Part shown: positions 23,096-42,497 of the stretch, piece after piece
How positions within the stretch are numbered: the first letter of the stretch is position 1
Layout of the letters: every line of letters begins with the position of its first letter
DNA from: a virus
Lineage: Duplodnaviria; Caudoviricetes
Reading direction: 5' to 3' (one strand)
Length of the DNA: 64,000 nucleotides
Virus record (IMG/VR): IMGVR_UViG_3300032319_000846
Coordinates: 1 to 64,000 of that record
The notes under the pieces: model-generated
What the model was told of the DNA's origin: nothing
What the model saw: only the letters and a program-made list of their open reading frames with translations
Database searches by the model: none
Translations under genes and position numbers: made by a program

Positions 23096-23776
23096 ATGGC
23101 AACAGGTATTTTAATTTTGGGAAAATCAGGTAGCGGTAAATCTACGAGCTTGAGAAATTTAGACCCTACAAAAACATTTATTATCAATGTGGTGAATAAA
23201 CCACTTCCTTTTAAAGGATGGAAAAATAACTATACTAAGTATAGTAAAGATAATCCATCAGGAAATATGGTTTCTACAGATAATACAACACAAATTATGA
23301 AAGCTCTTTCTTATATTGATAAAGAAAGGCCAGAAATTAAGCATATTATCATAGATGATAGTCAGTATACGATGGGAAATGAATATATGCGTAGAGCTAA
23401 AGAGAGTGGATATAATAAATTTACAGATATTGGACAAAATATGTTTAATCTTGTAAATTTAATTCCTAATTTAAGAGAAGATTTATATGTTGTATTTTTA
23501 CATCATGTAGAAATTGATAAAGATGAATTAGGAAATCAACAAGTGCAGAGTAAGTCAATTGGCAAGATGTTCACGCAATATATAACTCTAGAGGGTTTGT
23601 TCAGTATTGTATTATATACAAATGTAACTAAAGATGAAAAAGGAATGCATTATGGATTTCTTACACAATCAGATGGAACAAATACTGCTAAATCACCAAT
23701 GGAATTATTCCCCACTTTGATTATTCCAAATGATTTGAATTATGTAATTGAACAAGTTGAAGATTATAATAATTAA
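23096..23776 (+). CDS. AAA_24/Sak4-like P-loop ATPase (recombination)
   Basis: GKSGSGKSTS, IIIDDSQY, LEGLFSIVL, TAKSP..LF...IPNDL. Confidence 0.85.
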   Translation: MATGILILGKSGSGKSTSLRNLDPTKTFIINVVNKPLPFKGWKNNYTKYSKDNPSGNMVSTDNTTQIMKALSYIDKERPEIKHIIIDDSQYTMGNEYMRRAKESGYNKFTDIGQNMFNLVNLIPNLREDLYVVFLHHVEIDKDELGNQQVQSKSIGKMFTQYITLEGLFSIVLYTNVTKDEKGMHYGFLTQSDGTNTAKSPMELFPTLIIPNDLNYVIEQVEDYNN

Positions 23777-23793
23777 TTGAAAAATAATTGAGA

Positions 23794-23861
23794 TTTCATT
23801 TGGATATGTATGTATAGGTGTTGTATATTTGCAACTCACTAACAAATATATCCAAATGAAA
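23794..23861 (+). promoter_or_regulatory. promoter inside a start-codon-sequestering hairpin
   Basis: Perfect 14-bp inverted repeat TTTCATTTGGATAT / ATATCCAAATGAAA containing ATG 23856; TTG-N21-TATATTTG with the -7 element at 23824-23831. Confidence 0.8.
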
Positions 23862-24758
23862 AATCTAATTAATGTTGAAGAAGTATTAGAGCAGCTTGAT
23901 AAAACTTCTATTCTTTACAATTATTTAAGTACAAACCCATCATTAAAAATATTTTCATTATTTCCTTCTACTGAAAACAAAAAATCAGGAATTTATTGTA
24001 TTTTTACTTTACATAATAGTAAGGTGTATATAGGAAGTGCTAAAAACTTTCAATATAGATTTAGAAAGCATAGATATTTGTTAGTAAACAATAAACATCA
24101 CAGTAAATATTTACAGAATTCTTATAATAAATATAAAAAAGATGATTTTTTGGTTTTTATTATAGAAGAAACACTGGAGTTGGAAAATAAAGAATTTTTG
24201 TATATAAAAATGTTTAATGCTGTTAAAGAAGGTTATAATGCAACTGAAGACACACAAAGAAATTTTTATGATGAAACACTTATTTCTAATAATAAAATGA
24301 GAAGGTCTATACCTGTAATAGCACTTGATTTAAAGGGTAATTTTATAAAAAGATTTGCTTCTGTTTCTGATGCAGCAAAAGCTTATAACGACCAAAGCAC
24401 TAACATTTCTAAATGTTGTAATGGAAAATCAAGACTTGTTAAAAACACTATGTTTATATATGAGAAAGATTATAATCCTGAACAGCAATATTTTTTAAAA
24501 GAACGCTCTTTTACTCATCAAAAATCTGATAGAATGAGGAAATTAACTTCTGAAAGAATGAAAGGAAAGGTTATTTCTTTAGAACAAAGATTACTTTCTT
24601 CTATTCAACAAGGAATAAAAATTCTTTGTGAAACGGATGGTTTATCATTTAGAAGTTTAAAACATGCTGGAAAATATTACAATATTAATCCTACATCTAT
24701 TAAAAGTAGTATTGAACAAAACAGATTATGCAAAAATTTAAAATTTATTTATCAATAA
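23856..24758 (+). CDS. free-standing GIY-YIG homing endonuclease with NUMOD1
   Basis: SGIYCI...YIGSA...R...H...GYN and NUMOD1-like F.SVSDAA.......ISKCC; ATG 23856 preferred over TTG 23829. Confidence 0.88.
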   Translation: MKNLINVEEVLEQLDKTSILYNYLSTNPSLKIFSLFPSTENKKSGIYCIFTLHNSKVYIGSAKNFQYRFRKHRYLLVNNKHHSKYLQNSYNKYKKDDFLVFIIEETLELENKEFLYIKMFNAVKEGYNATEDTQRNFYDETLISNNKMRRSIPVIALDLKGNFIKRFASVSDAAKAYNDQSTNISKCCNGKSRLVKNTMFIYEKDYNPEQQYFLKERSFTHQKSDRMRKLTSERMKGKVISLEQRLLSSIQQGIKILCETDGLSFRSLKHAGKYYNINPTSIKSSIEQNRLCKNLKFIYQ

Positions 24759-25040
24759 TTACACATTGGGAACAGATTTTTCCATCAATTAACTAACTAA
24801 TATGAAAAAATACACAATTCTTCTCATTACAAACATTTTCTTTTTTCTTTGTTTACTTCTAACAACAATATTTGGAAGTGATACAAAAGATGTATTATCT
24901 GCAATTTGGATTTTAGGAATGTTTCTTTTTTCCTATGTAGAACTTAAACTCTGCAAAAAAGAATGAAAACATTTTCTTTTTTAATAGGGTGCTTTTTGTA
25001 GCATCATTTTTTAACACAGTAATTAAAAAAACAAACAACA

Positions 25041-25556
25041 ATGTTTAATTTACACAAAGCAAGCTTTATTCCACAGGCAAATTCTCAAAAGAAAGAACCT
25101 GAACTTTCAGATTTAGTAGTAGTAAAAGAAGAGAAAAAAATTGAGTGGGATTTAATGTTTCTACCAGAACAAAATCGTTGGAAAATTAAACCCTCTTTTC
25201 TTGTTAATGATTTAGGTTATACAGCAGCATTACAAGATGGGTATTTATTTTTACTTCAAACAGGAGAAGATGCAGTAGAGATTTTAAAACCTAAATTTCT
25301 TAAAGGACTTGGAAACCTCTTTACATCAAACTATTTCAATCTACTTGCTGTACAAGCTGGATTTTCTATCACCGAAAAATGTTACTTGTTTCTTACAGAG
25401 CAGGAAACAGGGATTGAAAATGTAAAAGCATATCTTATAACAAAAGAAATTCCTAATGTTGTACTTCCATCTGTAGAAGAACTTCCTGTTTTATCTATTG
25501 TATTTGAAGAAAAAACTTTGGAAGAAGATTCTATTAACAAAACAGATTTATTTTAG
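25041..25556 (+). CDS. hypothetical protein with C-terminal TDLF
   Basis: ORF track; followed by a GAAA-loop terminator at 25578-25599. Confidence 0.7.
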   Translation: MFNLHKASFIPQANSQKKEPELSDLVVVKEEKKIEWDLMFLPEQNRWKIKPSFLVNDLGYTAALQDGYLFLLQTGEDAVEILKPKFLKGLGNLFTSNYFNLLAVQAGFSITEKCYLFLTEQETGIENVKAYLITKEIPNVVLPSVEELPVLSIVFEEKTLEEDSINKTDLF

Positions 25557-25625
25557 CCCATAATTTATTGACTTTTGGAGGGAGAAATCCCTCTTTTTTA
25601 CACACTTTTAAAATTTTATATTATT

Positions 25626-26282
25626 ATGTTTTCATTTGATGAAGCAACAACAGCAGCAGAAACTACCTCTTCTAATGCTAAAACACGTTTTCCTTTTCCT
25701 ACAAATCCTTCTTATGGTGTTGTTGCTAAATTAGTAAGCTACACTTATCCAGATAACAAAGATGGAGGAGATTTAGTGTTTGAAGCTCCTAATGGCGGCA
25801 CTACTGTTCGTACTCTTTGGAATCCCTCATTTAATAAAGGTGTTCCTAATCCTCCAGAAGTTATTAGTGGTGCATCTAAGGGTGTAGCAGGTCTTGTTAA
25901 AGCTTTAGGAATTACAAAAAAACCTACAGGTACGGTAAGTACATGGAAAGAATTCCTTGATGGATATTTTGGAAATGTAGATTTTACCACACTTAAAGCT
26001 ATTCGTGTTAAAGCGGGATATGCTAAAGATAAACAAGAGTTTGACCCTTCTAAATTTGAAGGAAAAACCGAAGAAGAAATTAAAGCAATTTATCACCCAT
26101 TTGTCAATATTTCTAAATCTAATTATTGGTATTTTGATGCTAATGATAAACGTGATTTTAGTGAATTCACCGCTTATGATAAAGTTTATACAGAGTTTGA
26201 GTTAACAGAGAATAACGCAACCCCATCAAGAGATGATGATTTACCATTTGGCCCTTCATCTAATGATGGAGATTTGTTTTAA
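25626..26282 (+). CDS. putative single-stranded DNA-binding protein
   Basis: Acidic tail DDDLPF...DGDLF; located between the Sak4-like ATPase and primase; the ORF-track start 25575 lies in the upstream terminator. Confidence 0.6.
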   Translation: MFSFDEATTAAETTSSNAKTRFPFPTNPSYGVVAKLVSYTYPDNKDGGDLVFEAPNGGTTVRTLWNPSFNKGVPNPPEVISGASKGVAGLVKALGITKKPTGTVSTWKEFLDGYFGNVDFTTLKAIRVKAGYAKDKQEFDPSKFEGKTEEEIKAIYHPFVNISKSNYWYFDANDKRDFSEFTAYDKVYTEFELTENNATPSRDDDLPFGPSSNDGDLF

Positions 26283-26316
26283 GAATTTTGATTTTGTTTC
26301 ATAGTTATAAAATAGT

Positions 26317-26349
26317 AAAGAGGGAGAGATATTCTTTCCCTCTTTTTTT
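26317..26349 (+). terminator. rho-independent terminator
   Basis: AAAGAGGGAGAGA-TAT-TCTTTCCCTCTTT + T-tract. Confidence 0.8.
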
Positions 26350-26555
26350 GTATCTTTAAATTTTAGAAAATGAACACATTAATTATAATTGGAAGCATTG
26401 GATTTAAAAGATGCTATTTTAACATATCTGAACAAGAAGCAATAGCAAGATATATTAAAGATGAAGATAGTAATTTGGAGTTTGTATTAGAACATATTGA
26501 TAGTTTTACATTTAATGATGAATTTTGTGCTTATGATGCTTGGAACTATTAATCT

Positions 26556-27545
26556 ATGTTTACTTATGATATTCCATTAACAAAACAAGAAATACTCGAA
26601 AGAATTTCACAGGAATCTATTTTTGAGAAGTATTTAGGAATATATCCTCAAACAGATGGTAGAAGATATATTAATCCTTTAAGAGAAAATAAAACACCTA
26701 ATACAGAATTTCTTTATATAAGAAATACATTGTATATGAGAGATTGGGGAGGAAATGATAAAAATTTGAATTGTTTTTCTATTGTTCAACTTCTATACAA
26801 CTGTTCTTATAATGAAGCTCTTAAACACATTGAAAATGATTTTGGGTTGGGCTCTCAACCAATCAATACAAATATTCCCACAATTCAAAGAAACAGCAAT
26901 TACAATCATGTGGAAGTACCTGTAAAGAAACTTACATCTATTCAAATAAGAAAAAAAGAATTTACAGAGAAAGAATTAAATTTTTGGAATTGTAATAATA
27001 ACTTCAACTTTACAACAGAAGAATTAGAAAAACATCAAATATATTCTACAGAATATGTTTGGTATAATGAAAATAAAATCAAGAGTAAAGAAGGAGTATT
27101 TGCTTATCAATTAAAACCTCAGATATTTCAAATATATTCTCCATTTTGTGAAGATAGAAAATACAGATTTAGAAGCACAGATTTAAAAGGAATATTGGTA
27201 AATGCTCATTTATTAAAACCTTCTAAAACTGTATTACTTACTAAGAGTTTTAAAGATGAATTTTACAGTAGGGTGTTAAGAGCAAATTCTACAGCATTAT
27301 TAAATGAAGGAATTATTCCTACAAGACAACAAATTGATTTTCTTAAAACAAAAGGAAGAATTGTATTGCTGTATGATAATGATGAGAAAGGAATTGCTGT
27401 AGCTAATAGAATTTGTGATGAATACAAGGAAGTTAGTAAAATCTTTTTACCTGTAGATTATGGTAAAGATGTAGATGAATCTATAAGAAATGTTGGGAAA
27501 AAAAAAGTACTATATTGGATGGATAAAAACGGATTATTAGAATGA
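26556..27545 (+). CDS. DNA primase (TOPRIM), Bacteroidota-phage type
   Basis: NPLRE.KTP and RDWGG N-domain; LTKSFKD; LYDNDEKG (DxD); KDVDE. Confidence 0.85.
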   Translation: MFTYDIPLTKQEILERISQESIFEKYLGIYPQTDGRRYINPLRENKTPNTEFLYIRNTLYMRDWGGNDKNLNCFSIVQLLYNCSYNEALKHIENDFGLGSQPINTNIPTIQRNSNYNHVEVPVKKLTSIQIRKKEFTEKELNFWNCNNNFNFTTEELEKHQIYSTEYVWYNENKIKSKEGVFAYQLKPQIFQIYSPFCEDRKYRFRSTDLKGILVNAHLLKPSKTVLLTKSFKDEFYSRVLRANSTALLNEGIIPTRQQIDFLKTKGRIVLLYDNDEKGIAVANRICDEYKEVSKIFLPVDYGKDVDESIRNVGKKKVLYWMDKNGLLE

Positions 27546-28884
27546 AAGAAATGAGCTATAGTTTTAAACATGAATGGGTTTTATATACTGATTTACAAAA
27601 ACAATTAGTACAAACTCGAAAAAAATTAAATCAAAATCATTTTAAAGAATTTTTAGAATTTTCTTTAAAAGGAGTAGTAAATGATTTAAAAGATAAATAT
27701 TTTCAAAAAGAAAATGGAAAGATTTTTAAGATTTGTAGTGTAACACATGAAGTACTTAATAGAGGTTATAATATTTATCTACATACAGCAGAGATAGGTG
27801 TATTAACTATTTATTTTAGAGATTCTTTTGTTCCAGAGAATTTATACAAAAGTTTAGTTGGCAACTACATTTCTCTTTCTGAAATAGAATTTAAAAAAGT
27901 AGAAAAACAAAGAATTCTAAAAGAAATTGAAATCTTACAAAAACAATTAAAAGAATTGTAATGAAAACTATAAAAAGAACAATTGTTGGAGAAGGAATTT
28001 CTAAACTATTTGGAGGATTTCCTAAAGATTTAGAAATCGGTAAACAATACGAGTTAAAATGGGATTTTGAATTACGACAGTATATGGTGTTAGATAAATA
28101 TAAAGCTATGAGTTTTAAATGGGATAAAAATTTACCACAATGAAAATAACTAAACAATTATCAGATGATGAGTTTGTTGTAAAACTTGAAGAACAGGATA
28201 AACAACGACATTTTGGATGTAAAATAGATGTAGTGCATGACTATGTAGCATTTTCTTCAAAAGGACAATTGTACAGCGAAGGAGCATTTAGTTTAGTAGA
28301 AAATGGTAGAGCTTCAGGAAATACATTAAGTGTATTTAAATGTGTACAAATTCCTATTAAAAGTATGTTTAAAATTGTATTACCTCTTCTTAATTCTCAT
28401 CCTTATTTACAAGAAGAACACTTTAAAGATAGAATTTATGATGTAGATGATACATACTTTAAAGACCATGGACAAAATAAACCAAGATATTTGAAAGGAG
28501 ATAAATATCCAGCTTATTCATATTCTAATAGTATAGTAAGGTATTGGAAAGAAAATACTCCTATGATTGCTTTTTCTATGAAAGGAGAAAAGGAATACAA
28601 TCATGTAACACTAAAATTCTTTAATGAGTTTGTACTTCCTACATTAAATAAATGAAAACATTTACATTTAGAATTACACAGAATGCTGTAGGATACTTTG
28701 AAGGTAAAATAGATATAGAAGCTTTTTCTGAAAATGCTGCTATTAATAAATTAAAAAAACTACAGGAAGAAGAACTAGAAGGATTGGTATATGGTTGGAC
28801 TACATCAGAGTTAATAAGTGATGGAAGAATAGAAGTTTGGAATAATGGAAAATTAGTTAATTAAAATTTATGAAATAATTTAGA

Positions 28885-29472
28885 ATGAAGTTTTTTAATA
28901 CAATTGGTTCAGACCCAGAGTTTGTAGTGATAGGTAAAGCTCCTGTTTCTATGGTAGGAATTGTAGGAGGAACAAAAGAACATCCACAACCAATTCAAAT
29001 TGATGGATGCTGTTGTTTAACAGATAATGTGTTGGTAGAATTTACAATTCCAGCATGTAATAATTTTAGTTCTGTTAAGAGTTACATTGACAGATGTGTT
29101 ACATTAACACAAACAGAATTACAAAAAATCAATCCTGAATGGGAACTACATGCAATTAGCAGTGTAGAATTTCCTGAATCAGAATTACAATCAGAGCAAG
29201 CTCAAACTTTTGGATGCGAGCGTAGTAATAACATCTATGCTTCTAATGGATTGAGTGATTTGATTACACCACAAGAAGTAGGTAATTTCAGGAGTTTAGG
29301 ACTACATACCCATCACGGATGGATTGATATTCCAAGTGAAGAAGAGTTAAAAGACTTCATATTTTTATGTGATTTATTCTTAGGAATTCCTTCATATATT
29401 TATGATAAAGATAGATTTAGGAGAGGCTTTTACGGGAAAATTGGTGAGCACAGAATAAAAAAAGAGTATGGT
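28885..29472 (+). CDS. phiEco32-like COOH-NH2 ligase type 2, exon 1
   Basis: TIGSDPEF, DNVLVEF, FGC, RSLGLHTHHG, RR.FYGK.G..R.K.YG; interrupted after GGT at 29472. Confidence 0.9.
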
Positions 29473-30516
29473 AAACTAACTAAAAACACTATATAATTAA
29501 TTAGTATTTTTTGTAAAATGTGTGTATTTTTGTATATAACTAAATATACAAAAAATGGAATTAGAACAGCAAGTAATTGAATGTCTTTTAAGAAAAGAAA
29601 CTATTTATTCTATAGCTAAAAAATTTAACAAAAGTCAAGAATTTGTTAGAAAAAGAGCTAAAGATAATAACATAGAAACTCTATCTTTTAAAGATATGGT
29701 AAAAAATAGAAGAATTGTCAGTGTTAATCCTTTTCTTGATTTAGATAATGAGCAGGTTCAATATTGGTTGGGTTTTTTAGCAGCAGATAGAGCAATCCAT
29801 GAAGGGAAGATTTCATTAGGTTTACAAGAACAAGATGAAATTCATATTGATAAATTCATAAAATTTATCAATCCTAAACTAAAAAAGACAAAACTTTTAG
29901 AACATAAGAAATATATTTCTTATAGGACTTCTTTTAGAAATCAAGAAATTTGTGATTATCTAAATCAATTAGGTATAACTTCTAAAAAGAGTTTTACACT
30001 TTTCTATAATCATTCTTTTAATAAACACTTTCTTAGAGGCGTAATTGATGGAGATGGTTATATAAGAAAATCTCACGGAGAAGTAAGTATAGCTACAGGT
30101 TCTATTTTATTTGCTGAACAAATTCAAAAATTTATTATAGATAATTACAGTGTAAATTGTACAATTAGAAAAGATAATTCTAACATATACACTGTAGGAG
30201 TTTATGGTAAAACACAGGTTACAAAAATATTAAATGATTTATATATTGATGCAGAAATTTATCTGGAAAGAAAATTTCTTAATGCCATGTCTCATAGAAA
30301 TATGGGAGCACAAACACCTTAAATTCAGGGAAACAGCATCAGCAATCCTGAGCAAAACTCATATTAAAAAGGAGAATTACTAAAGAAAAAATGTGGTTAG
30401 TAATTTGTTGATTTTTTAAGTTAGAGGATGTGCAACGACTATAATAGGTGCATCTTAACAGTATGTTTATATAGCTGAAGATGAAGGGATAGTCTGAACA
30501 GGAGAGAACCTGTTTG
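29473..30516 (+). mobile_element. group I self-splicing intron (IA-like) with a homing endonuclease ORF in L1
   Basis: The 5' exon TATGGT pairs with IGS GCCATG (30284-30289, U.G at the splice site). P2 CTCATA-GAAA-TATGGG; P3 CACCT/AGGTG; P4 TTCAGG/CCTGAG; P7 GACTA (30437)/TAGTC (30490); P9 AACAGG/CCTGTT; terminal G 30516. Splicing restores EYG|VEYRSL in frame. Confidence 0.92.
29555..30322 (+). CDS. intron-encoded LAGLIDADG homing endonuclease
   Basis: N-terminal HTH; YWLGFLAADRAI and FLRGVIDGDGYI motifs; YLERK end; the 3' end overlaps the IGS/P2/P3. Confidence 0.9.
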   Translation: MELEQQVIECLLRKETIYSIAKKFNKSQEFVRKRAKDNNIETLSFKDMVKNRRIVSVNPFLDLDNEQVQYWLGFLAADRAIHEGKISLGLQEQDEIHIDKFIKFINPKLKKTKLLEHKKYISYRTSFRNQEICDYLNQLGITSKKSFTLFYNHSFNKHFLRGVIDGDGYIRKSHGEVSIATGSILFAEQIQKFIIDNYSVNCTIRKDNSNIYTVGVYGKTQVTKILNDLYIDAEIYLERKFLNAMSHRNMGAQTP

Positions 30517-30732
30517 GTAGAATATAGGAGTTTAGGAGCAGGTATGTATCATTTTCCTAAAATAATTCAACAAGGGCTTAATAATATTAAACTTGCAATT
30601 GAATCTAATAAAATAGAAGAATTGAAAACGCTTTATTTTGAAACAATGAAACATATTTCGTTTACAAATAATTTATCTGTAGCACACGCAAAAAAATTAA
30701 ACAAAGAAATTATAAAAGATTTAACCAATTAA
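30517..30732 (+). CDS. COOH-NH2 ligase type 2, exon 2
   Basis: Begins VEYRSLG, the conserved (G)VEYR(T/S)L motif; spliced product 267 aa. Confidence 0.88.
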   Translation, partial: VEYRSLGAGMYHFPKIIQQGLNNIKLAIESNKIEELKTLYFETMKHISFTNNLSVAHAKKLNKEIIKDLTN

Positions 30733-30734
30733 TT

Positions 30735-31115
30735 ATGAATAACTTAGAAAAATCTCCTATTTACGTTTCGTGCTATGGTACATTACGCAAAGGCTTTGGT
30801 AATAATAGGTTGATGAGAGTGGAAGGAAATTCTTACATAGGAGCAGGTGTTACAAAGGAAAAATATGCAATGTATAAAAGTGGTATTCCTTATGTTATTA
30901 AGGAACCCCTTACACCTATTGTTGTAGATGTATATGAAGTTGCTCCTGAAAATCTTCCAAGAATTGATAGTTTAGAAGGACATCCTAATTGGTATAAAAG
31001 AGAAATTATTCCTGTAGTGTTGGAAGATGGAAAAGAATTAGATTGTTGGTTGTATTTTATGACCAGAACAGAAGTTAAAAATTATCAATTTGTAAAAACA
31101 GGAAATTATCAATAA
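30735..31115 (+). CDS. gamma-glutamylcyclotransferase (AIG2-like)
   Basis: YGTLRKG, VYEV, IDSLEGHP.WY.R, CWLYF. Confidence 0.9.
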   Translation: MNNLEKSPIYVSCYGTLRKGFGNNRLMRVEGNSYIGAGVTKEKYAMYKSGIPYVIKEPLTPIVVDVYEVAPENLPRIDSLEGHPNWYKREIIPVVLEDGKELDCWLYFMTRTEVKNYQFVKTGNYQ

Positions 31116-31120
31116 CCTTT

Positions 31121-32752
31121 ATGAAAAAATTTAAAAGCATTGATGAAAATAATTATAATGCAAATAATAGTTGTAGAACTTATTATGGTGTCAATAAAGA
31201 AAACGCTACAAACAAATTTTTTAAAAATGGTTGTTGTCAAGCTATTATAAGTATTATGCAGGAAGAAGAGGATTCTTCCTATTGGTGGAAAATTCTTGTT
31301 AGCAAATCAAAAGCTATTTCTACACTTTCTTGTATTGGAATTTCATTAGATGAATATTTAAATGAATTTACATCTTTAGGATTTCCCGCTATTGCAGAAT
31401 TAGAAGAAATTGATGGTGATTATGTATTTCATATAAACAACAATCCTAAAAACAAACATAGTTATTATTTGTTTTGCTGGTTGAGACATTTGTATTATAT
31501 GCAAAATATTGTAATTAATTATTTTCATTATAAGAAAGAGTGGGAATTATCCACAAATTTGCAAAAATATAATTTGTTAGGATTTTTACATTATAATTTA
31601 GGAGGATATAGTATATTTTACAAAAGGTCTGGTAATTTCTTAAAAGAAAATGTTGTAAAAGAGTTACAAAGCTTTAAGGTTACAAATCAAAATAATGTAC
31701 ACACAGAACATTATACTGAACATCTTAAAAATTATCAAAATTTAATATTAAATCATAGTTATTATTTTGAAAATTTTGCAGATTTAGATGAATATTTAAA
31801 ATCCAGTTTGCAAAATATCCCTAAAGTTAGAAAAACAAATGCTTATACAGATATTCAATTAAATGGTAAGTGTTATGTATTTGATGATTTAAATGGACAA
31901 ATTCCCAAGTTTCCTATTCGTAAGTATTATAATGGAAAAACAGGTATTACAATTGATTTAATAGAACCATTTTTAATCAAACAATCTATTTCTATGACTC
32001 CTTTAAAAGTGCTAAGTAGACACCCTTCTCATGAGGTGTTTCGGAAAAATTCAAATCTCTTGTTTAGTAAAAATGTATTGCTACGTTTAGGTAGTATCAC
32101 TGTAGTAGATGAAACTAAATATCAAGTAAAGATTAATTCTATTCCTTCTATTCAACGGAGTAGTAATAAATTTTTAATGAAACAATGTTTTGATATTGCT
32201 AAAGTTCCAACTACTAAATGGACTGCTAACATTGAAGAAGCTAAAACATTTGAATTCCCTATTATTGCAAAACATATAAAAGGGTCACGTGGAACTGGAA
32301 ATTACAAACTTGATAGTGTAGAAGATTTGATTAAATGGAGTACTCGTAGAAATCTTGATAATTACATCTACGAAGTATTTTTTAACTCAAGTAAAGAATA
32401 TCGTATTCATGTTTCTACACATGGAGTGTTTTTAGCTTGGAGAAAATTACGTAGAAACGATACTCCTGATAATCAAAAATGGTTTTTCAATAATATCAAC
32501 TGTAATTGGATTAGTGAGCAGAATGAATTGTTTGACACACCTAAAAATTGGGATGCTATTTGTACTGCTTCTGTAGCTGCTTTAAATGCTGTAGGACTTA
32601 CTATTGGTGCTGTTGATGTACGAGTTCAATCTAATAAAAAGAAAGCTCCTGAGTTTTGTATTATTGAGATAAATTCAGCACCCTCAGCTTCAAGTGTAAT
32701 GGCTGAGAGATATGTAGCAGAAATTAACAAAATTGTTGAAAAATCAGTTTAA
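31121..32752 (+). CDS. ATP-grasp peptide ligase (RimK/YheCD-like) with a long N-terminal extension
   Basis: SNKFLMK, PIIAK..KGSRGTG, KEYRIHV, GAVDV, IEINSAP. Confidence 0.88.
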   Translation: MKKFKSIDENNYNANNSCRTYYGVNKENATNKFFKNGCCQAIISIMQEEEDSSYWWKILVSKSKAISTLSCIGISLDEYLNEFTSLGFPAIAELEEIDGDYVFHINNNPKNKHSYYLFCWLRHLYYMQNIVINYFHYKKEWELSTNLQKYNLLGFLHYNLGGYSIFYKRSGNFLKENVVKELQSFKVTNQNNVHTEHYTEHLKNYQNLILNHSYYFENFADLDEYLKSSLQNIPKVRKTNAYTDIQLNGKCYVFDDLNGQIPKFPIRKYYNGKTGITIDLIEPFLIKQSISMTPLKVLSRHPSHEVFRKNSNLLFSKNVLLRLGSITVVDETKYQVKINSIPSIQRSSNKFLMKQCFDIAKVPTTKWTANIEEAKTFEFPIIAKHIKGSRGTGNYKLDSVEDLIKWSTRRNLDNYIYEVFFNSSKEYRIHVSTHGVFLAWRKLRRNDTPDNQKWFFNNINCNWISEQNELFDTPKNWDAICTASVAALNAVGLTIGAVDVRVQSNKKKAPEFCIIEINSAPSASSVMAERYVAEINKIVEKSV

Positions 32753-32872
32753 AATCTAACTTTTTTAAAAACTACTTTTACAGCTTTGTGTGTATTAAAT
32801 TATACATAGTTGTGAAAGTAGTTTAAAATTTAATTTAATCAATCATTTATAAAACTACTTAATTAATATAAC

Positions 32873-34096
32873 ATGTGCGGAATTTCGGGGTTTTTGCCCA
32901 AAAAAGGAAAAAAAGCTGATTTAGATAGAATGTTTATGTTAGCAATTACAAATGAAGAAAGAGGTACTGATAGTTGTGGTGTAGCTATTGGTAATGATTA
33001 TTGTCAACATGGAGTGGCAAAACTATCAAAAGCACGGGATTTTATTCTTGAAAATAAAGAAGATATAAAAAAAGTGGATTTAATAAATAAACCTATTATT
33101 TTTCATACACGAAAATCTACTGTGGGTGCTTTTAGCAAACAAAATTCACACCCTATGCGATATTCTTGGAAGCATGAAGGAGAAGAAGAAGAATATCTTA
33201 CTTTAGCTCACAATGGAAGTGTAACAGAAACATGGGATATGTTTAATAAATTTGTAAAACCTTATAGCACAAAAGCTAAATGGGTTGATTACATTGATAC
33301 ACGGGTTTTTGCTCATGGATTTGCAAATGCTTTTTGTGCAAAAGATTATTCTCGTATTTTAGAAATGTTGAAAACATACAAAGGAGCAGCAGCTTTTTTA
33401 TTCTATACAAATACACATTTTTATGTATGGAAAGGTGCAGCAGGAAATGTAGAAGAGCGTCCTATGTATTATGTGGAAACAGAAGATGGATGGTATTTTC
33501 ATTCCATTAGCAGCGTGTTGGAAATTTCTTTTAATATAAAACCTACATGTGTAGGTAATAATACACTTTTAACTTTTGCACAAGTTGGAATTGTTGATAC
33601 GCTTGTTATTCCAAGAACTAAAACTGTTGTTACTACTTACAATAATACGGAAGAATATTATAAAGATGAAAAATATTATAAACCAACTGTTTCTAATAAA
33701 CATTCCACCGCTATTATTACCTCTTTAAAAATTAATCTTTTAGGATATTTTGTACACAATAACAAAATAGTAGAAAATTTTCTACCTTCTTATGGTACTT
33801 TTTGCAAAGGTTTTGCTGTATATTATGATAATGCAGATATGCAAAAAGTAATTGCTAAAGTAATAGCTTGTACAAGTAAGGAAGATTTTGATAAATTTCT
33901 TTTAGAAAATAAATTAAAAGGATTTGTAGGAAGAATTCCTATTGTAAACGCCAAAAATCAACTTGTAGCGTTATATGATGTTAATAAAAATGATTATATA
34001 AAAGAAGGAGAAATTTTTAAGGATACACGTACTTTTAAAGAATATATTTACAAAAATCAAAAAGTAGAAGAATATGTCACAAGTAGTAACCGTTAG
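32873..34096 (+). CDS. class II (Ntn) glutamine amidotransferase
   Basis: MCGISG (Cys1 nucleophile), RGTDSCG, HTRKST, NSHP, AHNGSV, DT. Confidence 0.92.
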   Translation: MCGISGFLPKKGKKADLDRMFMLAITNEERGTDSCGVAIGNDYCQHGVAKLSKARDFILENKEDIKKVDLINKPIIFHTRKSTVGAFSKQNSHPMRYSWKHEGEEEEYLTLAHNGSVTETWDMFNKFVKPYSTKAKWVDYIDTRVFAHGFANAFCAKDYSRILEMLKTYKGAAAFLFYTNTHFYVWKGAAGNVEERPMYYVETEDGWYFHSISSVLEISFNIKPTCVGNNTLLTFAQVGIVDTLVIPRTKTVVTTYNNTEEYYKDEKYYKPTVSNKHSTAIITSLKINLLGYFVHNNKIVENFLPSYGTFCKGFAVYYDNADMQKVIAKVIACTSKEDFDKFLLENKLKGFVGRIPIVNAKNQLVALYDVNKNDYIKEGEIFKDTRTFKEYIYKNQKVEEYVTSSNR

Positions 34097-35447
34097 AAAT
34101 GATGAACAAGCAAGAGAAGCTTGTAGAAAAATAGGACAGAACTACTATCTTATAAACAGAGATGTGTTTGAAATAGGTCAAAAATGGTATAGAGAACCTC
34201 TTACATTTTTAGATAATTATGATGGAGTTAGAAAACTTAAATCAGAACATTCATACAGCACTGTTTATGAAAACCACGATTCTAATAATGTAGTAACTAC
34301 TACACAGGCGATTATTTATTACTATGCGGGAGGCACAAAAGAAATTTGTGTATCAGCACTTAGTACAGGTAAATTAATTCCTTCTTGGTTTTTAGAAGGA
34401 GTTTATATTGATAAGAATTATAAAAAAATTTACCCTGTAAGAAGAACACATAAGCATTACAGTATGAATGAAAGTCCTGATACTGCTAAACTAATTCTTA
34501 GTAATAAAGAAATACATGCGGATTTTGATTGTATTAAAAAAGAATTAGCAGGATTAACATTTGGATTTGAGATTGAAACTTCTGAAGGAGAAATTTTGAA
34601 TAAAATTGTAAATGACTACAAATTTGTAAAACTTTATGATGGAAGTATTACAGGACATGAGTTTGTTTCTGTTCCTTTAGAAGTAGAAAATTTTGATTAT
34701 TTAAGACAATTTTGTAGTTTATTAAAGAAAGCATGTAATAAAAATATGTTTTGCTCTACACACGTTCATGTAGGAGGAATTCCATATAGTGAAGATAATT
34801 TTACAGCTATTTTTTCTTTATTTAAAAGATTGGAACATGAAATTCACTCTATTGTTCCTCCTTATAAAAAATCTTTGAATTATTTTGCTTCTAAAAGAAC
34901 AAGTGGATTAGGGGAAATGAAAGACCATTGTAAGTATTTACCTGACCATGTAAATCTTGCAGAAGGTGCTAAAAACCCTACTTTATTTACTAAACAAGTT
35001 GCTGTATATTTTGCTAATGGTAATAAAGTGAAGACAGAACATTTGGGTAGCGATTACTACAATACTATTCTTGATACAAGAAAATGGAATCTTAATCGTT
35101 ATTTTTTTGTCAATTTTGTAAATTATCTTTTTAAACAAAATGGAACTATTGAATTTAGACTATTAGAATCTACCTTTTGTTTTGAGCATATTCTTTATTG
35201 GACACTTCTTAATGTTGCTATTATTAAATATGCAATTAAAGAAAAGAAGAAAGTGTTTAAAAGAAAAGATAAAATTACTTTAGAAGATTGCGTTTATGGA
35301 ACATATTCTGAAGATGTAGCTGTAAAAATATTTGAATGGATTCAAATGCGTAGAAATAAATATTCTAATTATTTAAATTCAATGGATGATTTTGGTGGAG
35401 CACATCATTTTGATAACTTAACAGATGTATCAGCAGTAACATGGTAG
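34074..35447 (+). CDS. putative amidoligase (COOH-NH2 ligase, Amidoligase_2-like)
   Basis: TFGFEIE, YDGSI, EFVS, CSTHVHVG, RYFFVN, TIEFR. Confidence 0.88.
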   Translation: MSQVVTVRNDEQAREACRKIGQNYYLINRDVFEIGQKWYREPLTFLDNYDGVRKLKSEHSYSTVYENHDSNNVVTTTQAIIYYYAGGTKEICVSALSTGKLIPSWFLEGVYIDKNYKKIYPVRRTHKHYSMNESPDTAKLILSNKEIHADFDCIKKELAGLTFGFEIETSEGEILNKIVNDYKFVKLYDGSITGHEFVSVPLEVENFDYLRQFCSLLKKACNKNMFCSTHVHVGGIPYSEDNFTAIFSLFKRLEHEIHSIVPPYKKSLNYFASKRTSGLGEMKDHCKYLPDHVNLAEGAKNPTLFTKQVAVYFANGNKVKTEHLGSDYYNTILDTRKWNLNRYFFVNFVNYLFKQNGTIEFRLLESTFCFEHILYWTLLNVAIIKYAIKEKKKVFKRKDKITLEDCVYGTYSEDVAVKIFEWIQMRRNKYSNYLNSMDDFGGAHHFDNLTDVSAVTW

Positions 35448-37044: not shown

Positions 37045-37086
37045 TTGCTATATTTGTGTAAAATTAAATTTATACAAATATGGCAA
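37045..37086 (+). promoter_or_regulatory. promoter inside a start-codon-sequestering hairpin
   Basis: TTGCTATATTTGTGTAAA / TTTATACAAATATGGCAA forms an 18-bp stem (two G.U pairs) covering ATG 37080; TATATTTG at 37049-37056. Confidence 0.78.
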
Positions 37087-37460
37087 AATCCAGAGTAGAA
37101 AAAACAAGAAATGGAAATACTTGGACAGAAGCAAGATATTTTCAGCAAATTAGGAGTGCATTAAGAAATGCATTTCGTTATTATAAACCTTTTCAAGAAG
37201 CATTAGAAAAATCTAGTAGACCTTCTCAATCTTTAAATAAACGTTTAAAAAAAGAATATCAATGTGCTCATTGTTTGAAATGGTTTAAGCGTTCTGATAT
37301 AGAAATTGACCATATTCAAGAATGTGGTAGTTTAAATTCTTATGAAGACATTGTTCCTTTCATTAAAAGATTAGCTGTTGAAGATTCTTCATTATTGCAA
37401 ATTCTTTGTAAGGAAGACCATAAAATTAAAACTAAATCTTATTTACAAAGAAAAAAATGA
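37080..37460 (+). CDS. HNH-type endonuclease
   Basis: YQCAHC...EIDHIQECG...LQILCKEDH..KT. Confidence 0.8.
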   Translation: MAKSRVEKTRNGNTWTEARYFQQIRSALRNAFRYYKPFQEALEKSSRPSQSLNKRLKKEYQCAHCLKWFKRSDIEIDHIQECGSLNSYEDIVPFIKRLAVEDSSLLQILCKEDHKIKTKSYLQRKK

Positions 37461-40600: not shown

Positions 40601-40671
40601 GTACATTAGAACAAGATGTTGTACAGATTAGAATGAATTATTTAGATTATTTAATAAATGAAACTTATTGA
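37634..40671 (+). other. cluster of small hypothetical genes
   Basis: Includes a QxKxKFGxxRFY-family protein (37634-37906) and other unannotated ORFs. Confidence 0.65.
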
Positions 40672-41515
40672 CCCCACTTTATTTTACATTGTAAAAGCTG
40701 AATTACAGCAAACATTATGGAGAATTTCTTTAGATGAGATTAAACTTGCTGCTAAATTAGGTAAATCTATTTATGTTGTAGATATATATCAAAATTTTGT
40801 ATCTTCCACCTATCCTTTATTTGAAATTGAAAAATATTTAACTATAGAGGATGTAGATGTGGTTTATTTAAGATATGAGCAAGAAGATGTAGTTGTGCTT
40901 CCAACAATTATATGTAATTTGTTATTTAAATTTCATAGTGGGTGGGTAAATTTAATGTATAATTATTTTTTATCTGAAGATTTTATTATACTTATACAAA
41001 CAATAAAAGATATTAGGAATAATTCAAATGAATGTTTTCCTATTATTACAGATATGTTTAATTGTTTTGTGGTAAATCCTACTAAATTAAAAGGAGCTAT
41101 TATAAGTGAGTACAGCTATAGAAATAAATTTAATTCTGGGTATGCTTTAGCTACATTTGAAAAGGAAAAACCTCCAACATTAAAAGCTATTGAAAATTCT
41201 ATAAAACCTAAGAAAAGCTTTAATTGGTATCTACAAAATGATATGCTTGATTCAGTAAGTCAGGGTTGCTTTTTGTTTAATGTGGAATTAATAAGTGAAT
41301 ATTCTAATAATAAATTTACTGAAGAAGTTTGTAAAATATTAAAACATTTAAATATTTGTACATTATTATTAGGAACAGGATTGTTTAAACTATCTAATTT
41401 ATTAGGAGAAAAAGTATTGATGTCTCCACATCCATTAGAAATTTTAAAAGATAAAAAAGAGTATAATACAGATATTTTTATTAAATTTGAAGAAATGTCA
41501 AAAATTAATTTCTAA
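40658..41515 (+). CDS. uracil-DNA glycosylase family 1-like protein, catalytically degenerate
   Basis: W..L, FP...DMFNCF, G.AL, PPTL..I, QGCFLFN, FT, LLG and SPHP occur in UNG order, but GQDPY is replaced by SEYSY. Confidence 0.75.
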   Translation: MKLIDPTLFYIVKAELQQTLWRISLDEIKLAAKLGKSIYVVDIYQNFVSSTYPLFEIEKYLTIEDVDVVYLRYEQEDVVVLPTIICNLLFKFHSGWVNLMYNYFLSEDFIILIQTIKDIRNNSNECFPIITDMFNCFVVNPTKLKGAIISEYSYRNKFNSGYALATFEKEKPPTLKAIENSIKPKKSFNWYLQNDMLDSVSQGCFLFNVELISEYSNNKFTEEVCKILKHLNICTLLLGTGLFKLSNLLGEKVLMSPHPLEILKDKKEYNTDIFIKFEEMSKINF

Positions 41516-41572: not shown

Positions 41573-41716
41573 ATGAAAAATAAACAGATACAAAGTTATG
41601 TTTCAGAGGAACTTTATCTTCAATTGAAACAGGTTGCACAGAGTCAAGGACTTTTAGTAGCAACACTAATCAGACAACTTATTATTAATCATTTAAAAAG
41701 TATTAAAAATGATTGA
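41573..41716 (+). CDS. ribbon-helix-helix (CopG-like) small DNA-binding protein, 47 aa (not in ORF track)
   Basis: MKNKQIQSYVSEELYLQLKQVAQSQGLLVATLIRQLIINHLKSIKND has the beta-alpha-alpha RHH pattern; overlaps the downstream nuclease start. Confidence 0.7.
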   Translation: MKNKQIQSYVSEELYLQLKQVAQSQGLLVATLIRQLIINHLKSIKND

Positions 41717-42497
41717 AGATGAAGGAAAATTCTACTTATATAGACATATAAGATTAGATACTAATGAGGTATTTTATGTTGGTATTGGAAGTAAACCTTT
41801 AGATGCAAAATCACATGAGTATATTTATACCAGAGCTTATAATCAAACCCAAAGAAGTGAATTTTGGAAAAGAATTGTTGATAAAACAGAATATAGAGTG
41901 GAGATAATTCTTGAATCTGATGATAAAGAGTTTATTGGAAATAAAGAAAAAGAATTTATTAGATTGTATGGTAGAAGATGTAATAATGAGGGTACTTTAG
42001 CAAATATTTGTACAGGAGGTATAAAAGATTGGAAATATACACATTCGAGTATTGCAAAAATTAAAATGTCTGAAACAAGAAAAGGAAGAAAAAGACCAAT
42101 TGAAGTGTGTGAAAAAATTAGAAAAACTTTAACAGGTAAACCAAGAGAGGATTTATTAGTATATTATGATATATATGATTTAGAAGGAATTTTAGTTTAT
42201 AAAGAAAAAACAGTAAAAGAGTTGTCTACTCTTTTAGGAGTTTGTTATTCTACAATTAGATATGCCACAATAAAAAAATATAAACTATTAAAGAAATATT
42301 ATAGTGTTGTTTCTGGTTCTTCTTTTGAATTAACAAATCATATTACTAAATACAGAGAAACCCATCCAACAGTTTGTACATCTAAAGATTGTGATAAAAA
42401 AACTTACGCTTTAGGTTATTGTATTTATCATTACTATCACGAAGCAGAAGGAGTCAAAGAAAGAATTCAAACTAATGTTAAAAAAAGAAAGTCTTAA
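41709..42497 (+). CDS. GIY-YIG-like endonuclease with NUMOD3
   Basis: FYLYRH...FYVGIG...RAY...E.EFI..YGR...G.LAN...GG; NUMOD3-like KMSETRKG/KIRKTLTG. Confidence 0.82.
   Translation: MIEDEGKFYLYRHIRLDTNEVFYVGIGSKPLDAKSHEYIYTRAYNQTQRSEFWKRIVDKTEYRVEIILESDDKEFIGNKEKEFIRLYGRRCNNEGTLANICTGGIKDWKYTHSSIAKIKMSETRKGRKRPIEVCEKIRKTLTGKPREDLLVYYDIYDLEGILVYKEKTVKELSTLLGVCYSTIRYATIKKYKLLKKYYSVVSGSSFELTNHITKYRETHPTVCTSKDCDKKTYALGYCIYHYYHEAEGVKERIQTNVKKRKS

Follow-up and report, generated by a model that had tools for sequence, protein, structure and literature searches.

We analysed a 64,000-nucleotide stretch of viral DNA (hereafter, the window), which comprises the first 64 kb of the 138,178-bp virus record IMGVR_UViG_3300032319_000846, a record with an estimated completeness of 93% whose source is a marine crAss-like phage. 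Judged by its sequence matches, the cluster of five enzyme genes at positions 28885-35447 is the crAss-like version of the phiEco32/LUZ24-type amidoligase cassette, which has been known since 2009 in hundreds of phages. The cluster encodes two ligases of the GS/GCL superfamily (a COOH-NH2 ligase and an Amidoligase_2 protein), a RimK-like ATP-grasp ligase, an Ntn glutaminase of the class II glutamine amidotransferase (GATase) type, and a gamma-glutamyl(amine) cyclotransferase (GGCT) of the GGACT type; the active-site residues of all five are intact, and the genes are co-inherited. We consider that the best explanation of the whole is a crAss-like cassette of this type whose enzymes make and trim amides on a shared acceptor, and we assign this reading a probability of about 0.7.

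The identification rests on cross-matches for all five families: crAss-built hidden Markov models (HMMs) detected every counterpart in phage NJ01, with values of 2.2e-68 for the ligase (NJ01_102), 2e-32 for the GATase, 3.1e-25 for the GGCT, 9.9e-15 for the ATP-grasp protein (NJ01_096) and 2.9e-07 for the amidoligase, while the ligase HMM also matched PaP4_022 at 7.5e-73. The correspondence with the phiEco32-like amidoligase system had been proposed in a preliminary description of this DNA, which also reported five contiguous, co-oriented genes with intact catalytic motifs. Both points were borne out, as the open reading frames (ORFs) lie at those positions, all on the + strand, with no credible antisense ORF at the locus, and all family-conserved catalytic residues are present. 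Profile and structure searches assigned the ORFs to the families originally named (phrog_3815, PF06094, phrog_2599 and PF12224, together with the MCGISG start of the GATase). In addition, one study of estuary metagenomes includes three runs whose contigs span most of the cassette at ~90-95% identity, and a fourth run may be the source sample.

To examine co-inheritance, IMG/VR was scanned with an alignment of the ATP-grasp protein, which yielded 144 stretches encoding a relative. Eighty of these were examined, and all 80 proved to be syntenic crAss-like replication modules. Component counts were taken from the 57 related loci with enough flanking sequence, where the amidoligase was present in 57, the Ntn-GATase in 56, the COOH-NH2 ligase in 51, a further GATase in 40, and the GGCT in 39; this further GATase belongs to Peptidase_C26/class I according to Pfam. 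Since these families cluster together in every one of the 57 related loci, the grouping goes beyond chance, and the co-occurrence in related phages anticipated in the preliminary description was found. Gene order is variable, yet certain neighbour pairs recur, namely GATase-II with amidoligase, C26-GATase with COOH-NH2 ligase, and GGCT with ATP-grasp. The first pair is adjacent in 56 of the 57 loci and in every listed order holding both genes, which usually overlap. The cluster had been described as complete, which holds for the five enzymes but not for the frequent sixth component: a GAT1 HMM found no C26/class-I GATase in the whole 138-kb genome, and 17 of the 57 related loci likewise lack this gene.

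As a side observation, a second class II GATase-like gene lies directly after the amidoligase at L005:15282-16799 and in 11 other related loci (cluster c16; PF13230 at 9e-4), and the c16 HMM matches the window GATase at 4.6e-06.

The COOH-NH2 ligase gene and its insert

The first gene encodes a GCS2/YbdK-like carboxylate-amine ligase in two parts. An ORF at 28885-29496 matches phrog_3815 ('COOH.NH2 ligase') at 3.2e-32 and ends in an early stop, and the C-terminus is supplied by a 72-aa ORF at 30514-30732. When exon 1 (28885-29472, residues 1-196) is joined to exon 2 (30517-30732, residues 197-267), the result is a 267-aa protein that can be aligned end to end with the ligases of Cellulophaga phage phi14:2 (g039) and cr108_1 (gp032), both intron-less, and the junction KEYG/VEYRSLG aligns to them without a gap. 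The family HMM matches the exon 2 frame at 5e-05. A tblastn search with exon 1 matched 302 phage records that bear the annotation COOH-NH2 ligase; in 301 of these the match spans 80% of the exon or more. Among them are phiEco32-like and PaP3/LUZ24-like phages (NJ01, PaP3, CVT22). The join restores E198 and R200, both fully (100%) conserved. Across 65 aligned homologues, every other residue shared by more than 85% is retained, except for a conservative Ile-to-Thr change at position 142; D10, E12, D47, N48, E52, R136, H141, H143, R179 and R190 are all kept. The insert interrupts the gene, yet the junction is in frame and runs through invariant residues; the intron had been correctly recognised in the preliminary description.

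The insert (29473-30516, + strand, 1044 nt) sits between G196 and the invariant E198/R200, the most conserved motif of the ligase, and contains a 255-aa ORF at 29555-30322 that encodes a LAGLIDADG homing endonuclease (PF14528, 1.1e-06; phrog_4645, 2.3e-38). The nucleotide before the 5' splice site is U and the terminal nucleotide of the insert is G, while its last ~200 nt include a GACUAU/AUAGUC pairing (P7-like), an internal hairpin and a terminal hairpin. The minimum free energy fold of 30275-30520 has a z of -2.36, and P7/P8/P9-like pairings were seen both by eye and in the fold. Rfam RF00028 (group I) had no match in the insert, either at the gathering threshold or at E <= 10. On the strength of its boundaries, pairings and endonuclease, the insert is probably a group I intron. 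A candidate internal guide sequence, GCCAU, occurs at ~30285, 3' of the endonuclease ORF and ~810 nt from the 5' splice site. The ligase is uninterrupted in the closest relative (locus L003) and in all other loci with a full-length ligase; among contigs of four DNA sequencing runs, none bridged the intron and no intron-less form was seen.

These data also bear on whether the cassette is decaying, with a mobile insertion having turned the ligase into a pseudogene, and the other genes mere relics. A frame interrupted by 1044 nt, the failure of Rfam to recognise the insert as a group I intron, the missing C26 GATase and a short Ntn-GATase would all suit such decay. Against this, all invariant residues are kept in both exons, the junction is exactly in frame, and the insert holds a homing endonuclease together with P7/P8/P9-like pairings; moreover, the remaining four genes are unbroken and their catalytic residues conserved, and the absence of the C26 gene is shared by the 17 related loci noted above. 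We therefore regard decay as very improbable.

The remaining enzymes and the proposed chemistry

Downstream of the ligase, the GGCT gene (30735-31115, + strand) encodes a 126-aa protein of the AIG2/GGACT type, which matches PF06094 (5.6e-22, 79 bits) and phrog_2520 (1.1e-27), as well as the PDB chains of PH0828 and human GGACT. It carries the YGTL motif and Glu81, and 95-98% of 67 homologues share its residues Y14, G15, L17 and E81. The ATP-grasp protein follows, with an N-terminal extension encoded at 31121-31990 and a RimK/MptN-like ligase domain at 31991-32752 (both + strand). This domain (residues 296-543) matches phrog_2599 at 8.2e-30 and the PurD, PurK and Ddl chains in PDB by profile; among NCBIfam families, RimK, MptN and LysX are the nearest (MptN 9e-10, RimK family 2.8e-06), all scoring far below their cut-offs. 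K384, E426, R428, H430, K442, D499, E516 and N518 are retained, including the Lys/Glu/Arg and Asp-Glu-x-Asn set conserved across 77 homologues. A classical pre-ATP-grasp domain is absent.

Between this gene and the GATase lies the one sizeable intergenic gap of the cassette (32753-32872). As read from the sequence, it contains a long hairpin (~32768-32824) that lacks a T-run and so does not look like a typical terminator, and no terminator-like site was found in the gap. The class II (Ntn) GATase (32873-34096, + strand, 407 aa) begins with MCGISG, retains C2, R30, H78, R80, N114, G115 and D142, and has NCBIfam GlmS/PurF N-terminal matches from residue 1-2, whereas PF13230 gives 22.4 bits, just below its cut-off of 23. 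The glutaminase domain occupies residues ~1-230 and is followed by a poorly conserved C-terminal part; at 407 aa against a median of 624, the protein is the shortest of its family.

Its stop overlaps the start of the amidoligase by 23 nt. The latter (34074-35447, + strand), a GS/GCL-fold carboxylate-amine ligase of the Amidoligase_2 family, matches PF12224 with 36.6 bits (cut-off 22; 6e-09) and phrog_2443 at 1.9e-12, although a PDB sequence search returned no match. Its structural model (predicted template modelling score, pTM, 0.70) has a GS/GCL/YbdK-like fold, and Foldseek relates it to YbdK and GshF (probability 1.00), plant GCL, glutamine synthetases, gamma-glutamylmethylamide synthetase (GmaS) and PafA; E166, E168, D189, E196, H230, H232, R342, E360 and R362 are retained. 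The first ~160 aa, previously singled out as an extension and candidate recognition domain, turned out not to be special to this copy: the region is present across the crAss-type family (median 525 aa), the alignment with cr108_1 gp034 begins at residue 2, and the region is modelled as a ~40-aa beta mini-domain followed by low-confidence residues 42-126. No hydrophobic segment or signal peptide was detected in any of the five cassette proteins, which are soluble and cytoplasmic.

Within these families, GS, GCL/YbdK, GmaS, PafA and PuuA all activate the gamma-carboxylate of glutamate, class II and C26 GATases cleave glutamine or gamma-glutamyl amides, and GGCT-fold enzymes release 5-oxoproline from gamma-glutamyl derivatives. 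Given this family chemistry and the recurrence of ligase-plus-cleaver pairs, the cassette may represent a pathway in which amide bonds of the glutamine or gamma-glutamyl type are formed and trimmed, inside the infected cell's cytoplasm, on a single low-molecular-weight acceptor common to all the enzymes; each module would consist of a ligase and an amide-cleaving enzyme. The Ntn-GATase and Amidoligase_2 would form a two-subunit glutamine-dependent amidoligase, in which glutamine is hydrolysed and ammonia, or a gamma-glutamyl-bound amine, is handed to an acyl-phosphate made by the ligase. The COOH-NH2 ligase would form a second amide; the C26 GATase encoded beside it in most relatives, which resembles gamma-glutamyl hydrolase, is missing here. 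The ATP-grasp enzyme, guided by its fused N-terminal domain, would add an amino acid, most likely glutamate, to a carboxylate. The cyclotransferase could then remove a gamma-glutamyl group as 5-oxoproline in a protect/deprotect or editing step resembling that of BtrG. The reversible write/erase system suggested in the preliminary description would fit the measured rule that pairs each ligase with a cleaver, although reversibility itself is something we infer.

Several points weigh against this reading. Within the literature searched, no product, substrate or phenotype was found for any cassette member, and no paper identified the product, as the preliminary description had also supposed. The module model is built on gene adjacency and on analogy with other enzymes, and the amino-acid substrate of the ATP-grasp enzyme is a guess, given scores far below the RimK, MptN and LysX cut-offs. 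The GATase lacks the ~200 C-terminal residues found in most relatives. Furthermore, Pfam PF14395 did not match the ligase exon, the L003 orthologue or any part of the whole genome, and splicing of the ligase intron is a prediction.

The candidate acceptors were graded by likelihood. A small amine or carboxylate metabolite, such as a polyamine, an amino acid or a cofactor, is perhaps the least doubtful candidate. A cell-wall nucleotide or lipid-linked stem-peptide precursor is rather unlikely, and so is the rival explanation built on it, in which the stem peptide of cytoplasmic precursors is amidated or extended and the altered wall resists later phages or lysins. The enzymes of the cassette are cytoplasmic, like the MurT/GatD pair that modifies wall precursors, and a GATase beside an ATP-dependent ligase recalls the known wall amidation enzymes. 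The searches detected neither a cell-wall-binding nor a Mur-ligase nor a membrane-associated domain among the cassette proteins, however, and in crAss-like, LUZ24-like and RIO-1-like phages the cassette lies within replication and nucleotide modules, not among lysis or envelope genes; besides, the time available to a lytic phage for reshaping a sacculus already in place would be short. This role, including superinfection exclusion, is put forward, so far only as a hypothesis, in papers that cite Iyer 2009 and Hardies 2013 (PMC10580990, PMC11945000, PMC5498523, PMC3890496 for the proposal; the first three for the citations), and PMC5498523 credits the peptidoglycan-modification cassette to Iyer et al. 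2009 and Hardies et al. 2013. The GATase-amidoligase pair is reported from mycobacteriophages and predicted archaeal viruses as well (PMC10580990, PMC11706807), which also speaks against a wall-directed function.

A protein acceptor is unlikely, as is the tagging or glutamylation scheme in which the ATP-grasp enzyme would act on a C-terminus as RimK or LysX do, the GS-fold ligases on lysine as PafA does, and the N-terminal domain would recognise the substrate. In its favour, RimK and LysX, the named ATP-grasp families nearest to the protein, act on proteins or carriers; the amidoligase model has PafA and Dop among its fold matches; and the N-terminal domain, which lacks catalytic acidic residues, could serve in binding. 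On the other side, none of the 80 loci shows a conserved gene for a small substrate or carrier alongside the cassette, no neighbouring small ORF in the window ends in a Glu-rich tail, and GGACT-type enzymes require the free alpha-amino group of a gamma-glutamyl moiety.

Still less probable is an acceptor consisting of DNA or a nucleotide. In that scheme, a modified base would be elaborated further by the amidoligase and GATase, a role suspected of them in thymidine hypermodification clusters. Lee et al. link amidoligase and amidotransferase genes with thymidine-hypermodification genes (PMC8989533), and GATases are counted among the machinery of this modification (PMC13229309). The location is suggestive too, with the cassette directly 3' of the primase in most crAss-like loci and a UDG-like gene close by in ~30 of 81. 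Nevertheless, PHROG annotation of 20 neighbouring ORFs revealed replication genes, homing endonucleases and a thymidylate synthase-type protein, with no 5-hydroxymethyluracil (5-hmU) DNA kinase, amino-acid:DNA transferase or hydroxymethylase; UDG belongs to the general replication genes of crAss-like phages and is found in both cr108_1 and phi14:2, and the searches of the cassette proteins yielded no DNA-binding or base-flipping domain.

The N-terminal extension of the ATP-grasp protein

The preliminary description had drawn attention to a ~290-aa extension of the ATP-grasp protein, and this feature proved real. It is missing from phi14:2, cr108_1 and 76 of the 80 IMG/VR ATP-grasp homologues, but is common to ~20 metagenomic protein clusters. 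An alignment of 19 full-length relatives separates a conserved core (residues 1-165) from a variable linker (166-295), with C38, Y115, C119 and R122 invariant, and the AlphaFold model has a predicted local distance difference test (pLDDT) value of ~90 over residues 20-160. The domain also occurs free-standing, as protein P0040 and as the ORF L044:15155-16036, which another cassette has between its amidoligase and C26 GATase genes. From these alignments, the extension is a rare conserved domain.

Database searches with the extension returned little: no Pfam or PHROG match, no Foldseek match in PDB at E <= 0.001, no lead in the ESM Atlas, and only two representatives among 1.84 billion proteins. 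A profile search gave five matches, of which P0052 was the single new one; a degenerate motif scan of viral contigs pointed to seven loci, with only the L003 contig a true match; and P0040 used as a query found no related viral locus.

The BFVD viral fold matches are weak (Foldseek probability 0.16-0.84, template modelling score, TM, ~0.2-0.3), with entries mapped to genes by length and organism only. On that mapping, they include GAP52 gp028 and gp029, directly upstream of the GAP52 COOH-NH2 ligase, and PaP4_021, directly upstream of the PaP4 ligase. A further 266-aa match in LAh_6 is the counterpart of LAh8_5, which lies one gene upstream of the LAh_8 ligase, with LAh8_4 in between. These partner proteins belong to no Pfam family, and the four with a PHROG match fall into four separate function-unknown PHROGs. 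In most of them a C-[FYW]-G motif lies 20-37 residues in from the N-terminus, followed in several by an L-R-N-L helix motif ~80-115 residues further on, and the proteins may form one unrecognised family. The window extension has G-C-C-Q at 37-40 and L-R-H-L at 121-124, and a permissive alignment places Cys on Cys and Arg on Arg, whereas profile-profile comparison linked the extension neither to a cassette family nor to the family of GAP52 gp028 (hhalign probability 0.05). In the podophage loci L091:9177-11005, L092:6169-8109, L093:4174-5939 and L090:6812-8987, two adjacent partner genes encoding 266-397 aa were observed upstream of the ligase.

The extension thus resembles the partner proteins in weak fold matches and shared motifs, and we place the chance of a true relationship somewhere between one in three and one in two. 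Only tentatively, then, can it be viewed as a fused, highly diverged copy of the proteins encoded, mostly in pairs, just upstream of the ligase in the phiEco32, 7-11, GAP52, LUZ24, PaP4 and LAh cassettes; cr108_1 gp029 and gp030 are possibly the same partner proteins. If this were true, the partner proteins and the extension would constitute one family with an invariant Cys towards the N-terminus and an Arg-containing helix, and through the fusion this family would be linked functionally to the ATP-grasp reaction, for instance as an acceptor-binding or carrier subunit, providing a first handle on the substrate of the cassette.

Genomic setting and comparison with known systems

The cassette is located between the primase gene (26556-27545) and a UDG-like gene (40658-41515), within a long + strand block of 26-28% G+C that constitutes the replication module, with a PolA-size ORF, an RNA ligase, helicases, Sak4, the primase, the UDG-like gene, a thymidylate-synthase-type gene and homing endonucleases. 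A strong terminator-like hairpin (13 pairs and a T-run) was observed at 26317-26345, just 5' of the primase. Because no comparable strong terminator follows on the + strand until beyond 37000, the cassette is probably co-transcribed with replication genes, and the arrangement suggests a single transcription unit of primase, cassette and downstream small ORFs. Bacteroidota-type promoter motifs were not above chance, and sigma-70-like sites were fewer than the shuffled expectation.

Other features of the window include a tRNA-Arg (TCT) on the - strand at the start of the record (85-158) and three additional homing endonucleases in the replication module (23829-24758, 37080-37460 and 41709-42497), two of the phrog_314 family, one of which also matches the GIY-YIG family, and one of HNH type; together with the intron endonuclease, they give this module an unusually high mobile endonuclease load. 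The UDG-like gene itself has only a weak PHROG match (a function-unknown family, 1e-4).

This cassette is among the most widespread phage gene blocks that combine clear enzymology with no product reported in the literature searched, and solving it would reveal what use is made of three ATP-dependent amide ligations during phage replication. The copy described here brings no direct evidence on the product itself. It adds quantified pairing rules, in which each ligase lies beside an amide-cleaving enzyme, the dispensability of the C26 GATase, and a gene fusion possibly linking the partner proteins to the ATP-grasp step. A related block was observed in Leptolyngbya phage Lbo-JY46 (PP438436.1, 125 kb), where ~23258-28281 encodes a crAss-type ATP-grasp protein and an amidoligase with 34% and 25% identity to those of the window; by this similarity, the crAss-type cassette is also present in a cyanobacterial phage.

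The nearest named phages are phi14:2 and cr108_1, both crAss-like members of the Steigviridae, and the former offers a culturable relative, growing on Cellulophaga baltica. Genes g037-g041 of phi14:2 represent the same five families, co-directional and between primase and UDG genes, with identities to the window proteins of 41% for the ATP-grasp protein, 33% for the ligase, 28% for the GATase and 25% for the amidoligase. The two differ in gene order (GGCT-grasp-ligase in phi14:2, ligase-GGCT-grasp in the window), and phi14:2 has an intron-less ligase, a 289-aa ATP-grasp protein without the N-terminal domain, and a GATase of 638 aa instead of 407 aa. In cr108_1 (gp028-gp034), the ATP-grasp protein, COOH-NH2 ligase, class II GATase and amidoligase likewise lie between primase and UDG, and the amidoligase aligns with that of the window over residues 2-442; unlike the window, cr108_1 has a C26/class-I GATase (gp031) and the two paralogous proteins gp029/gp030, and no GGCT was detected there.

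At a greater distance, all five families are homologous to those of the phiEco32/7-11/GAP52 and LUZ24/PaP3/PaP4 cassettes, according to HMM cross-matches to NJ01, PaP4 and LAh_8. The podophage cassettes also consist of co-directional early or middle genes beside replication genes, but there the amidoligase precedes the GATase and two partner genes of 270-400 aa stand upstream of the ligase, whereas the window has no free partner gene and instead an ATP-grasp protein whose 290-aa extension weakly resembles the podophage partners.

Beyond phages, the likeness is one of pathway logic at the superfamily level only. MurT/GatD, PuuA/PuuD, GmaS with N-methylglutamate synthase, and BtrJ/BtrG each combine a carboxylate-activating ligase with an enzyme that delivers ammonia or removes a gamma-glutamyl group. 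A preprint describes BtrG as removing a protective gamma-glutamyl group in butirosin synthesis (bioRxiv 10.1101/2025.01.15.633182), the step to which the cyclotransferase of the cassette may be compared.

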